Notes under the pieces: model-generated | Database searches by the model: none | What the model saw: only the letters and a program-made list of their open reading frames with translations | Told to the model about the DNA's origin: nothing | Shown: one piece after another, positions 58,119-64,000 of the stretch | Layout: every line of letters starts with the position of its first letter | Position numbering within the stretch: the first letter of the stretch is position 1 | Made by a program: the position numbers and the translations under genes | Origin: an uncultured Candidatus Binatia bacterium | GTDB lineage: Bacteria > Desulfobacterota > Binatia > Bin18 | Direction: 5' to 3' | Length of the DNA stretch: 64,000 nucleotides | Assembly: GCA_965204455.1 (NCBI GenBank) | Contig: CBDBEO010000004.1 | Span: 2,183,485 to 2,247,484, forward strand

Positions 58119-60359
58119 TCAGCCTGCGGCGCGCAGGGCCTCAATCTGGCTGGGAGACAGGTAGGCGGCCAGGATTTCCGGGGCTGCCTCTTGGACGGCA
58201 GCGGGCGAGTCAAAGCCGGCCGCCACCAAGCTGCGCAGCGCTTCCCGGTCAAGGCCGGGCAGCTGGGCGCGGGCCAGGGCCAGGCCGTCCGGCCCGACGC
58301 CGAAACGCACGCAGTCGGCCAGGTCTTTGAGGTGCTCGGCTGCGGTCCAGCCCATCACCTCGGCCACCTCGTTGGCCGCATCGGCCAGCCAACCGATTTC
58401 GTCCGTCAGGGCTTTGATCGTCCCGGCGTAACACTGATAGCGACTTTCCAGGCCGGACAGGGCGTTGCCCTTGATCCATTCGCTCAGGAGCAGGGACAGT
58501 TTGGCCGAACGGACCTCTTTGCTGGTCGGCAGCATGCTGGCGTGCAGCAGCCGGCCGAGTTCCTCGCCGGGCGGCTGGCCGTCTTCAGGCAGCCGCTCAT
58601 TCAGCATGCTTTCATACACCCGGCTGCGGTGTTCGGTCGTGGACAGCGGCACGTACAGCCGTTTGCCGTCCGCAGTCAGGCTGAACAGATGCAGCAGCTC
58701 AAGCTCGGGCACGGCCCGGTCTCGGGCCTGGCTGAAAAAGCGGGCCAGCTTGACCGCTGTAGCGGCCTGAATGCCGCGCCGGGCGGCCACTTCTCCCAGG
58801 CTCGAGGCTTCCAGGCGGCCGTCCTCGCTGCGGTTGAGCAGCTGGGCTTGGACCAGGCTGTCGAGAATGGTGTCGAGCTCGTGGGCGGTCTCATCGGTCT
58901 GGGACGGCTTGGCGCCACGCCGCAGAAAACCCACATAGGTCAGTGCAAAGAAGGCCGCCACCTCATCACGCGTGGAGCACAGCTTGGAAGCGATCACGTT
59001 CAGCACCCGGTCGGCAAAACCGGCCTGGCCGGGAGCCAGAGTGAACTGTTCCTGTTCGCCCTGGATGTAGCCGTTCCACAGCAGGTCGGCCTGAAACTGG
59101 TTGACCGCGATGAGGATGGAGCGGCCGAACTCTTCCCGAAAACCCAGCCGTCCGGCGCGTCCGGAAATATTTTCGTACTCGGCCCACGATACCGGCATCT
59201 CGATAGGCGTGCCCGTCCGCTCGTCGGTCGCCCACTTCATCGGCTCGACAAACACGGTTGAAGCCGGCAGGTTGACGCCAAAAGCCAGGGTAGTGGTGCA
59301 GGCAATCACCCGCAGTTCTCCGCGCCGGTAGGCAGCCTCGACCACCCGGCGTTCCTCGGACGTGAGATCCGCGTGATGAAACGCCACCCCGCCGGCGAAA
59401 GCCGTTGTGAGCTGGGCTTTCAGCGCGGTTTCTTCACAGCCGTCAAGCTCGGCCAGGGCTGTCTGGGCGGGCGGTAGCTCGGCGCTGTTGGCCAGGGCCA
59501 AAGCGCACTGCACGGTGTCCCGCTTGGCTTTGAGGAAGATCAGGACCTGTTCGTCTTGCTGCACCAGATGGGTGACGGTGGTCAACAAGACCTCGGTCGG
59601 ATCCTCACTCTCGGTGTCAACAAAGTGCTCCTGGCCCTCTTCGCCGGTATTATAGGCTTTGTAGCGAAAGCTGCCGTTCAGCAGGACGCCGCGGTACAGT
59701 TCGACCGGCCGTTCGTCTTGCAGCAACAGATCGGCCTCCAGCCACTCGGCGATGGGTTCGGCCTCGCGCAAGACCGCGGACAGCCCCAACAGCTGCGGGC
59801 GCGGCTCACAGCCCAGGAGTTTGGCCAGACTCAGCTCCAGACCCGCCCCGCGTTCGGCATCGCCCAGCATTTGCAGCTCGTCGACCACGACCAGGGCAAC
59901 GCCGCGCAGCAGGTGGGGATGACGGACCAGGAGCTGAGACAGCTTTTCATACACCAGAACGGCCAGATGATAGTCGCCCTGTTCAATCGCCCGGTCGAAC
60001 TCGTGGCGGTCGCGGGTGGCAACCGCCACCTTGACCCCATACGCCCCGTAGCGGTCGCGGAAGGTCTGGTATTTCTCTTCGGCCAGGGCGCGCAGCGGGG
60101 TCAGGTACAAGACCCGTTTGCCGGCAAAGGTGGCCCGCATGGCGGCCATCTCGCCGACAAAGGTTTTGCCCGAAGAGGTCGGAGAGGAAATGATCAGGCT
60201 CTGGCCCTCAAACAGCCCGTAGCGTTGGACCGCAACCTCTTGGACGGGCAGCAGAAACTCGCCCTGCTGGTGTTCCCAAATCTCCAGCAGAGTGTCCGGC
60301 AGACCGTATTTGCGTAAGTCTCGAATCCGTCGCACCGACACGCCTCCAAACGCGGCCAT
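58119..60359 (-). CDS. Ski2/Hel308-like superfamily-2 DNA helicase (DEAD/DEAH box) with C-terminal HhH-like domain
   Basis: LLPVQEVAV...SLIISSPTSSGKTFVGEMAAM (motif I), VVVDELQMLGDAERGAGLE (motif II DExx), GLSAVL (III) and VFVEP...GRAGRLG (VI), in Hel308-like arrangement. Confidence 0.8.
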   Translation of the reverse strand: MAAFGGVSVRRIRDLRKYGLPDTLLEIWEHQQGEFLLPVQEVAVQRYGLFEGQSLIISSPTSSGKTFVGEMAAMRATFAGKRVLYLTPLRALAEEKYQTFRDRYGAYGVKVAVATRDRHEFDRAIEQGDYHLAVLVYEKLSQLLVRHPHLLRGVALVVVDELQMLGDAERGAGLELSLAKLLGCEPRPQLLGLSAVLREAEPIAEWLEADLLLQDERPVELYRGVLLNGSFRYKAYNTGEEGQEHFVDTESEDPTEVLLTTVTHLVQQDEQVLIFLKAKRDTVQCALALANSAELPPAQTALAELDGCEETALKAQLTTAFAGGVAFHHADLTSEERRVVEAAYRRGELRVIACTTTLAFGVNLPASTVFVEPMKWATDERTGTPIEMPVSWAEYENISGRAGRLGFREEFGRSILIAVNQFQADLLWNGYIQGEQEQFTLAPGQAGFADRVLNVIASKLCSTRDEVAAFFALTYVGFLRRGAKPSQTDETAHELDTILDSLVQAQLLNRSEDGRLEASSLGEVAARRGIQAATAVKLARFFSQARDRAVPELELLHLFSLTADGKRLYVPLSTTEHRSRVYESMLNERLPEDGQPPGEELGRLLHASMLPTSKEVRSAKLSLLLSEWIKGNALSGLESRYQCYAGTIKALTDEIGWLADAANEVAEVMGWTAAEHLKDLADCVRFGVGPDGLALARAQLPGLDREALRSLVAAGFDSPAAVQEAAPEILAAYLSPSQIEALRAAG

Positions 60360-60434
60360 GTTACCAAGCGGCCGGGACGGAGAAAAGGGCGGGAGCCGGT
60401 GCGACGCGGATGAAGAGCGGGGCGGGCCGGTGTT

Positions 60435-60923
60435 TCAGTCCGAGTCCGAGCGCGCCGCCCGCAGCGTCCGTACATAGCCAGCGCTCCCGCCGCAGCTGAG
60501 GATGTCAATATACAGGTCCGACAGATCGCGAATCGGGTAGCGCGTCCCAGAGCTGAGGTCTTTGACGATGAGGTCGTTGACATCAATGCGGAGACGGTCG
60601 TGGGCTCGAATCTCGGCCGCCTCCCACAGGGTCAGTGGGGGCAGGCCGATAGTCAGGCAGACCCGGAAAAACGACCAGGCAAAGCGCGGAGCAATGACCG
60701 CCTGTATGCCGTGGCCTTGCAGAGCCTCGGCCGCCCGAGCCGGGTTGGGACCGTCTCCGACCGGGCCGGTCGCCAGCAGGATGGTGTCCTCGGCCGGCGC
60801 GGACTCGGCCAATCGGTTGAGGATATCTACGGCTGAGACCCCACCCGTCATAACCCAGGCTCGTCCGCTCAGAATAAGCTCGTCTGTGTCCACGCCTGAC
60901 CTCGCTGCTCGGGCGTGCAGCAT
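60435..60923 (-). CDS. LeuD-like / aconitase swivel-domain protein
   Basis: ...GRAWVMTGGVSAVDILNRL...IQAVIAPRFAWSFFRVCLTIGLPPL resembles 3-isopropylmalate dehydratase small-subunit fold. The upstream ORF extension is probably non-coding. Confidence 0.5.
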   Translation of the reverse strand: MLHARAARSGVDTDELILSGRAWVMTGGVSAVDILNRLAESAPAEDTILLATGPVGDGPNPARAAEALQGHGIQAVIAPRFAWSFFRVCLTIGLPPLTLWEAAEIRAHDRLRIDVNDLIVKDLSSGTRYPIRDLSDLYIDILSCGGSAGYVRTLRAARSDSD

Positions 60924-61041
60924 AGTGCCACGGACAGAGCTTGTCGAGGGCGGTCGGCTCGGCCTTGCAAACCCCGCTTGGATCGGCGAAAACGGGGAGG
61001 CCGACCCAGGGCAGGAGTTCGGCTCGCGAGGAGGGACGCGC

Positions 61042-62103
61042 ATGAAATTCGGACTTCACTACCAGCTGCCGTGTACGGGTACGCAGTCTCCGGTCCAGCG
61101 TTATCGGGATACCATTGAGCAGGCCGTCCACGCCGAGAGCCTGGGCTTTGAGTCGATCTGGCCGGTTGAGCAACACTTCAACCCCCAGCTGTCCATCATG
61201 CCCGCCCCCCTGTTGCTGTTGACGGCCGTGGCCGAGCGAACAACGACCCTGCGGCTGGGGATTGCGATTGTCCTGCTGCCGCTCTCGCACCCGCTACGGG
61301 TGGCTGAGGAAATTGCCGTTTTGGATGTGATCAGCAACGGCCGGGTCGAGTTTGGGATTGGGCGCGGCTCCATCCCCACCCACTTCAGCGGTTTTGGTAT
61401 CGACCAGAAAGAGAGCCGGGGGCGGATGATGGAGGCGCTCGACATGATCCGTCAGGCCTGGACCTCGGAACGGGTATCGTTTCACGGACAGTTCTACAGC
61501 GTGGACGATATTGCGGTCGTTCCCAAGCCGGTCCAGCAGCCCCACCCGCCCATCCGGGCGGCGGCCAACAGCCTGGACACGTTCGAGTTGATGGGCCGTC
61601 TGGGCTATCCCATCTTTGTGGCCTCGCAGGTGAATCCGTTTGCGAAAATGCGCGAACTGATTCCGGTCTACCACCAGGCACGGGCGGCGGCCGGTCACGC
61701 CGAGGCACGAGCCGAAGATATTTCCCTGCTCGGGCCGCTGTACGTGGCCGACAGCCAGGCTCAGGTCCGCGAGGAGCTGGAGCCCAGCATCCGGCGTTTT
61801 CTGCAATCGGTCGCCTCCATCTATTCTTCGCAGGGACAAGATCTGGGGCCCGAATCGAGCCGCATCAAAGAGGTCCTGGAGCGGGTACGGCGCATGACCT
61901 ACGACAAGGTTGCCGAGGTGATGGGCATCTTTGAAACGCCCCAGGCCTGCGTTGAGCGCCTGCAGGCGCTGCACGAAGAGTTTGGCATGGGCCGGATGAT
62001 CTGCTGGTTCAATCCCGGCGGGAGCGTGCCGCATAGCCAGGTGATGCGCAGTATGGAGCTGTTCGCGGCCAAGGTCATGCCGCATTTTCGGGATGACGCC
62101 TGA
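61042..62103 (+). CDS. LLM-class (luciferase-like) flavin-dependent oxidoreductase
   Basis: MKFGLHYQL...ESLGFESIWPVEQHF...RLGIAIVLLPLSHPLRVAEE LLM pattern. GAGGGA RBS. The long upstream extension of ORF 60562..62103 is a shadow. Confidence 0.8.
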   Translation: MKFGLHYQLPCTGTQSPVQRYRDTIEQAVHAESLGFESIWPVEQHFNPQLSIMPAPLLLLTAVAERTTTLRLGIAIVLLPLSHPLRVAEEIAVLDVISNGRVEFGIGRGSIPTHFSGFGIDQKESRGRMMEALDMIRQAWTSERVSFHGQFYSVDDIAVVPKPVQQPHPPIRAAANSLDTFELMGRLGYPIFVASQVNPFAKMRELIPVYHQARAAAGHAEARAEDISLLGPLYVADSQAQVREELEPSIRRFLQSVASIYSSQGQDLGPESSRIKEVLERVRRMTYDKVAEVMGIFETPQACVERLQALHEEFGMGRMICWFNPGGSVPHSQVMRSMELFAAKVMPHFRDDA

Positions 62104-62132
62104 GCCCCAACGGCCACACAAGGAGTCCGTCA

Positions 62133-62293
62133 TGTTTGATCTGCTCATCAAAAACGCGTGGATCGTCGATGGCAACGCAAGCCCGGGCTTTGCCGGGGAC
62201 GTGGCGGTCCGGGACGGGAAGATCGCCGCGATTGAACTCTGTATTGCTGACGAAGCCCGGCACACCGTGCAAGCTTGCCGGTTGGCTTCCTGA
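62133..62293 (+). pseudogene. N-terminal remnant of a D-aminoacylase/amidohydrolase-family gene, truncated at a compositional junction
   Basis: MFDLLIKNAWIVDGNASPGFAGDVAVRDGKIAAI matches the N-terminus of N-acyl-D-amino-acid deacylase-type amidohydrolases. The reading then runs into a stop where GC content drops. Confidence 0.5.
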
Positions 62294-62317
62294 CTCGTTA
62301 CAAATTGAGGTAGTCGA

Positions 62318-63931
62318 ATGGCGTTGAGTGTACGTCCCATCAGCCAAATTTTCCTTCATGTTGGTAGCGGCGGAGAAGCTGATCTATTCAAGAAGGTACG
62401 CAAAGTCATCCTCAAATGGATAGAGCCTCGCGCCGGTGCCGCTCTTTCTGCCAAAGCCTGGCAGGGGGACTCGTTTATGCTTGATGGAATTGGCACTCAG
62501 AGGACCGAAGCCGTCGTCCTCCCTGACAAGCGCTTGTGGGCAGCGCGTCTCGATGACGCGGATAAGAACGTGGCGCGGCGGAGCTGGGTGACCGAGGTTG
62601 TAATCCATGAAGAGCAGGACGGAACGGTGCGTTTGGGCTGCCGACTGCAATGCGTGATGCGCGATGCTGACGTTGCCTTCGAGCGATCTATACCGGGCTT
62701 TGTGTCCGATATTGTTCAGCACAACACAGTCAAACTCGACGGCAAGCCAATCTCGCTCGAACCGTGGTTCATCGACAGAAAGGATCAGGTTCAAGAACTT
62801 ATAAAGCTGCTTCGTGCCCCTCATCGGCGCGGTGATGTGATTGTTTTCTCACTGCCGGAAGACTCCACCAGTCAGGATGAAACGGCAGCATCGGCTCCAG
62901 AAGTTGCTCGACGTACCTCTGGCGCTGCGCATGTCGCGGTCATTAGCGGGCCGGCGGGTTATTATCTTTCAGACCTTGTTGGTGAAGGATTCTCTGTCTA
63001 TCGCCGGGCAATACGTACCTACCGCCCTGGCTTTGACCCGACCACGGACGAGCCGTTCTTACATCCCCGAAGGTTGGAGTCTCAAATTGCCGAATGGCAA
63101 GACGAAGGCCCAAAAGCGTATGAACGACTCTTGATCTCGCAGGCATTGCTGCGGTCCGTTTCTAGTCGTGACATTGAGCGGGAGCTGCCACCGTTTCCGG
63201 AACTGCGCCGTATAGCCGCCGACCTGGAGCGTAAGAAAGATCGACAAGAAGTCTCCTCTCAAGAAGACCTTCTTCAACTTGCGGAGAGTGAAATTCGAGA
63301 ACTGAGAGACGAACGTGCCAAGATGAAAGACGAATACAACGGGCTTCTCGTTGTTGCGGAACAAGAACGAGACTCGGCTCAGGAGGATTATGAGCGGGCC
63401 AGAAACAGAAACATCCATCTTCAGAATCGTGTACGACAGCTAGAACAGCAGCTAGCGCAGTCCAATCAATCAATGGAACCACCGATCCCCAACAACCTAG
63501 ACGGCTTTGAAAAATGGTGTCAAGAAAATCTCTCGGGCTCTGTGGAGCTCCACAATCGTGCGTTCACGGGCGTCAAGAAATCGCAATATGAAGATAAATC
63601 GTTGCTCTACAAGGCCCTTCTCCTACTGCGCGATTATTATGTGCCGATGCGCCGCGAGGGAGGAGACAAAAAAAAGGATGATTTCAAAAAAGCGTGCCAG
63701 AAACTCGGCATTGAGGAAGCGCAGGCAATTAGCGAAACCGGGAAAGGAGAAGAGGGAGACACCTATATTGTCCGTCACTCAGGCAAGAAGTGTGTTTTGA
63801 AACGTCACCTCAGAAAGGGGAATGCACACGACGAACGTTACTGCTTCCGATTGTATTTCTTTTGGGATGACGAGAATGAGTACGTTGTCGTTGGCTGGCT
63901 TCCCTCGCATCTTGATACGCGAGCGACGTAA
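62318..63931 (+). CDS. 537-aa protein of unknown family in a low-GC3 foreign segment; central coiled coil; C-terminal RelE/ParE-like motif
   Basis: GC3 ~55% versus ~85% for flanking genes. GAGGT RBS. Coiled coil ~aa 290-390. C-terminus ...YIVRHSGKKCVLKRHLRKGNAHDERYCFRLYFFWDDENEYVVVGWLPSHLDTR resembles the RelE/ParE core (YRIIY.VDDE...V.ILRIGHR). Confidence 0.7.
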   Translation: MALSVRPISQIFLHVGSGGEADLFKKVRKVILKWIEPRAGAALSAKAWQGDSFMLDGIGTQRTEAVVLPDKRLWAARLDDADKNVARRSWVTEVVIHEEQDGTVRLGCRLQCVMRDADVAFERSIPGFVSDIVQHNTVKLDGKPISLEPWFIDRKDQVQELIKLLRAPHRRGDVIVFSLPEDSTSQDETAASAPEVARRTSGAAHVAVISGPAGYYLSDLVGEGFSVYRRAIRTYRPGFDPTTDEPFLHPRRLESQIAEWQDEGPKAYERLLISQALLRSVSSRDIERELPPFPELRRIAADLERKKDRQEVSSQEDLLQLAESEIRELRDERAKMKDEYNGLLVVAEQERDSAQEDYERARNRNIHLQNRVRQLEQQLAQSNQSMEPPIPNNLDGFEKWCQENLSGSVELHNRAFTGVKKSQYEDKSLLYKALLLLRDYYVPMRREGGDKKKDDFKKACQKLGIEEAQAISETGKGEEGDTYIVRHSGKKCVLKRHLRKGNAHDERYCFRLYFFWDDENEYVVVGWLPSHLDTRAT

Positions 63932-64000
63932 ACTTCTATTACTGAGGCAGGGGAGCACCTGATTGTCGGTCATTCATTCGGTTTTCCTGAAGCCGGTCTT

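Follow-up and report, generated by a model that had tools for sequence, protein, structure and literature searches.

HEC-07 (Hma-embedded candidate 07) is one of nine HEC systems, seven of which reduced plaquing; HEC-01 and HEC-09 alone failed to do so, which places HEC-07 among the active systems (Payne, Hughes, Fineran & Jackson 2024, bioRxiv 10.1101/2024.01.29.577857). Its tested representative, WP_039244286.1 of Pseudomonas aeruginosa NCTC13717, is a protein of 549 aa that lowered phage plaquing in E. coli, and the same preprint (10.1101/2024.01.29.577857) divides HEC-07 into an N-terminal AdoMetDC-like domain, a thioredoxin-like domain devoid of CxxC and a RelE-like C-terminus with a conserved His543. 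The literature that we searched held no mutational or biochemical work on any HEC-07 protein. Two further groups serve here as terms of comparison. The type II mRNA interferases were represented by E. coli YafQ (4q2u), RelE (2kc8) and YoeB (2a6q), and by a Helicobacter pylori toxin (4ls4) and HP0892 (4ltt). CapRel combines an N-terminal toxin, a toxSAS tRNA pyrophosphokinase, with a C-terminal sensor. Fused toxin-antitoxin defence proteins of this CapRel(SJ46) type were reportedly presented by Zhang et al. in Nature in 2022.

The DNA analysed here (the window) is a stretch of 64,000 nucleotides from the chromosome of an uncultivated Candidatus Binatia bacterium. Near its end, at 62318..63931 on the plus strand, lies an ORF of 537 aa, exactly as a first-pass annotation made from the letters of the window had placed it. 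That annotation saw in it an orphan matching no family, a view that has to be abandoned: the PADLOC HEC-07 model PDLC04161 covers residues 4-537 of the protein with positions 20-553 of its 553 (E = 2e-185), and the three other HEC-07 models of PADLOC-DB (the set is PDLC04158-04161) match at E = 6e-85 to 5e-47. Judged by these profiles, the product is a full-length member of the HEC-07 family, a single-protein candidate antiphage defence. It is not alone: 298 homologues were recovered at E <= 0.001 among 8000 candidates scored, and the C-terminal module matches 1390 cluster representatives (50% identity), mostly about 545-565 aa long and carrying the module at their extreme C-terminus. In a metagenome scan, six loci matched the protein, with identity of at most 50%.

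Compared with the tested HEC-07, the order of domains is the same (an alpha/beta domain at the N-terminus, then a thioredoxin fold that lacks CxxC, a helical arm and a RelE-like C-terminus). His543, the seventh residue from the end of the 549-aa protein, has its counterpart at the same position in H531, and here too there is a single gene without an antitoxin partner, with homologues that are Hma-embedded. The Binatia copy is, however, 12 residues shorter, with 4 rather than 18 residues ahead of the conserved RPVSQV block. Its host belongs to another phylum, and the phage result was obtained in E. coli with a protein that is about 42% identical (42% over the 115 N-terminal residues compared). 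That the family's tested representative protects against phage bears out the defence role proposed at first.

Housekeeping genes make up the upstream flank of the ORF, which within the window does not lie inside Hma. The final undisturbed host gene ahead of the junction, 61042..62103 (+), encodes an LLM-class luciferase-like monooxygenase (Pfam PF00296, E = 1.5e-68; GC3 0.785) and was taken as the synteny anchor. Its product shows 97% amino acid identity to that of L001 and 87% to that of L002, both Candidatus Binatia MAGs; a genome scan with the gene returned relatives, with 97% as the best match. Next comes, at 62132..62293 (+), the remnant of a D-aminoacylase-like amidohydrolase, now a pseudogene, recognized by phmmer against the PDB, by tblastn and by DNA alignment with L001. 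Codons 1-48 are homologous and are followed by 5 unrelated codons and TGA. Residues 3-48 align with residues 8-53 of the 480 of the solved D-aminoacylase 3gip (phmmer against the PDB, E = 8e-6), while 1m7j and 1v4y match at E ~1e-3 in the same search. L001, the closest related genome, possesses a complete amidohydrolase of 560 aa 3' of the same LLM gene; as a tblastn query this intact orthologue matched with its aa 1-48 only, at 62132..62275, and the window is 95.6% identical in DNA to L001 over 58277..62235, up to the break. The remnant also aligns with orthologues found 3' of the LLM gene in L003 and L017. What is left is residues 1-48 of 560, or 9% of the gene. These residues align with the N-terminal beta-sandwich segment of N-acyl-D-amino-acid deacylases / D-aminoacylases (3gip, 1m7j), whereas the HxH metal site and the TIM barrel of these enzymes are gone, so that the remnant cannot be an enzyme; the metal-binding PGFIDIHTH motif, present in the L001, L003 and L017 orthologues, is absent from it. 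The first-pass annotation was thus right to see a truncated gene rather than a complete small one, cut at the junction, but about 48 residues are conserved and not about 35, and the ATG is at 62132 instead of 62133.

The passage from host to imported DNA falls within 62276..62317 (no strand), as homology to the L001, L003 and L017 orthologues stops after codon 48. This alignment with intact orthologues had been proposed from the start as a check. The interval contains two in-frame stops, at 62291 and 62306, and, 7 nt ahead of the ATG of the HEC-07 ORF, a Shine-Dalgarno-like GAGG motif (62307..62310). Composition also changes: overall GC is 0.63 before 62294 and 0.52 after, and the ORF has a GC3 of 0.54, lying 7 sd below that of 8 host genes (0.715-0.803, mean 0.76, sd 0.03). 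The drop in GC3 announced earlier is therefore real on recomputation, if smaller (from ~78% to ~54%, not from ~85% to ~55%). Synteny with the intact orthologue supports the view, already put forward in the first-pass annotation, that the low-GC3 segment is foreign DNA abutting a truncated host amidohydrolase gene. The left end of the imported segment destroyed the D-aminoacylase-like gene after codon 48. To speak of an insertion, as was done at first, goes beyond this result, because the window holds the left junction only, where insertion cannot be told from replacement or deletion. The drop in identity to L001 at 62236 was considered as a second recombination boundary; this reading was rejected, since the orthologues are hypervariable over amidohydrolase residues 35-47. 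Neither att-like repeats nor a tRNA were found at the junction, and a look at terminators there gave nothing informative. The explanation that we favour joins membership in HEC-07, the mechanism discussed below and the position of the ORF, which is probably the first gene in a stretch of low-GC3 DNA that a Candidatus Binatia chromosome received by horizontal transfer.

The recombination at the junction might also have taken the promoter and the first ~15-20 codons, so that 62318..63931 would be an inactive leftover, a pseudogene in the making. All 41 homologues in the 42-sequence alignment begin with an N-terminal extension, of 14-20 residues in nearly all of them and with a loosely conserved L-x-P...R pattern, that this copy lacks; its ATG lies 24 nt past the stop codon that ends the remnant and 42 nt past the last homologous amidohydrolase codon, and a scan of 61900..64000, which had no calibration for Binatia, found no sigma-70-like promoter. 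The three frames upstream of the ATG were inspected for a vestige of the missing HEC-07 N-terminus, and the weak L-P...R resemblance seen there was rejected, being in the wrong register. However, no part of the family is less conserved than the missing segment, the frame of 537 codons runs without interruption and retains all conserved positions of the alignment, and the structural model is confident from residue 4 on. In addition, the GAGG motif precedes the ATG, the promoter scan loses weight for want of that calibration, and read-through of the upstream LLM/remnant transcript could give expression. An inactive leftover appears unlikely.

The organization of the protein was approached with an AlphaFold2 model (mean pLDDT 85; secondary structure from DSSP) and with an alignment of 42 family members. 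In the model, two alpha/beta domains extend to about residue 250, long helices follow at 293-311 and 315-381, and the C-terminal region, about 145 aa in length, ends in a beta-sheet, a layout of N-terminal region, long helices and C-terminal region that agrees with the earlier description. The first domain, aa 1-~147 (62318..62758, +), is the presumed sensor. It is confidently modelled, and fold searches rank START, Bet v 1 and SRPBCC-like ligand-binding folds best for it, where the preprint has an AdoMetDC-like domain. The second, aa ~150-250 (62765..63067, +), displays a thioredoxin fold without the CxxC redox site and, as modelled, is redox-dead. The helical region defined by DSSP on the model, aa ~265-381 (63110..63460, +), gave only coiled-coil noise against Pfam, NCBIfam and PDB sequences; its helix 315-381, 67 residues long, is probably a coiled coil or a dimerisation arm. 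Alignment and model delimit a conserved element ahead of the toxin fold, aa 393-426 (63494..63595, +), where W400, V409, R414 and A415 are invariant among the 42 members and H412 is nearly so. The predicted RelE/YafQ/YoeB-like toxin fold, aa ~427-537 (63596..63928, +), completes the protein, with H497-L498-x-x-G501 invariant and with R496, R511 and H531 (of PSHL) conserved in at least 90% of the 42 members.

Most likely, then, the 537-aa protein combines sensor and RNase, is autoinhibited and defends by abortive infection; the RNase activity, the autoinhibition, the trigger and the activity of this particular copy are what we infer. In the uninfected cell, the N-terminal domains and the helical arm would keep the RelE-like RNase inactive in cis, which would make a separate antitoxin gene unneeded. 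The RNase would be freed by a cue from the phage, be it a protein or a small ligand at the N-terminal domain, and would then cleave mRNA or other RNA and stop translation, thereby aborting the infection. The first-pass annotation had likened the protein to CapRel, and this comparison survives as a presumed analogy of logic: toxin and cis inhibitory or sensor part on one polypeptide, no antitoxin, abortive infection. The two share no domain and no homology. The toxin fold is RelE-like and C-terminal here, with the presumed sensor at the N-terminus, and no toxSAS (RelA/SpoT-like) domain was found in the protein with Pfam, NCBIfam, PADLOC or fold searches. A more specific scenario, which we hold to be doubtful, makes of the START/Bet v 1-like domain a small-molecule sensor gating the RelE-fold RNase. 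The N-terminal domain might bind a metabolite induced by the phage, or else a nucleotide or lipid in modified form, and binding would allosterically release the RNase via the thioredoxin fold and the helical arm. If true, this would be a ligand-gated, antitoxin-free RelE toxin, with a control logic not described for the RelE/ParE superfamily. A second possibility concerns this copy: its own 5' end lost, the gene might depend for expression on read-through of the host LLM/amidohydrolase operon. The fold analysis suggests that HEC-07 proteins may bind a ligand through a START-like N-terminal domain, which offers a testable view of how they sense infection.

The assignment of the effector as a toxin rests on fold similarity of the predicted model, at moderate Z, because a link to RelE/ParE was not found at the sequence level. 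RelE/ParE sequence models (ParE_toxin, YafQ_toxin, HigB-like, Gp49 and others) in Pfam and NCBIfam did not match the 537-aa protein, and Pfam returned no match to the superfamily for the 42 family members. Full-length and C-terminal profiles found no RelE/ParE match among PDB sequences, nor did hhalign against a YafQ sequence. The RelE/ParE-like C-terminus announced at first is therefore retained as the fold of a predicted model, and given up as a similarity of sequences or HMMs. The C-terminal profile also drew AcrIIA7/Tad2 proteins, which were set aside, their matches being marginal (E 0.2-1.3) and not significant. Besides this undetectable sequence-profile similarity, the domain differs from type II RelE/ParE toxins in being the C-terminal ~110 residues of a protein of 537 aa, instead of a free toxin of ~90 aa, and in having no adjacent antitoxin gene. 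No antitoxin-sized gene precedes 62318..63931, where the amidohydrolase remnant lies, and the window extends for 69 nt past its stop codon; nor was a conserved small partner gene seen at homologue loci, the L082 family member being flanked directly by HmaA and HmaB. The module might also be no mRNA interferase at all, and act as a ParE-like gyrase poison or as a module binding the ribosome or a phage protein, defence following another route. We consider this alternative quite unlikely.

Homologues occupy defence-island or mobile contexts. The gene order in L082 is HmaA - HEC-07 - HmaB - HmaC. In L083 the homologue stands beside GajA/GajB (Gabija), an IS66 transposase, an integrase and plasmid partition genes; in L084 and L085 it is followed by a convergent tyrosine integrase, and in L086 it has HipA and an OLD-family nuclease as neighbours. 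It is very improbable that the junction arose only in the assembly of the chromosome from metagenome data, as a chimeric join: the source does seem to be a MAG, a protein identical to this one is known from one 4.12-Mb contig and the break is abrupt with one side visible, but a complete ORF with a ribosome-binding motif comes directly past the break, homologues are commonly at island edges beside integrases, and a single contig of 4.12 Mb suggests long-read assembly, where such chimeras are presumably uncommon.

The main value of this locus lies in a correct annotation, as HEC-07 family and not as hypothetical or orphan, and no new kind of system is revealed. The novelty once claimed falls away, because the family and its RelE-like C-terminus are already described; that C-terminus is not new here. 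To be sure, both the RelE-like effector and the dead thioredoxin domain are confirmed by an independent analysis of predicted folds, and HEC-07, experimentally supported but mechanistically unstudied, is now placed in Candidatus Binatia, an uncultivated phylum. The locus is also a clean case of a defence gene gained at the cost of a metabolic gene. As for the upstream helicase gene at 58119..60359, a place for it in the imported element was considered and rejected, as relatives have it in synteny and its composition resembles that of the host. Its product matches Hachiman HamB models via the generic helicase core only.

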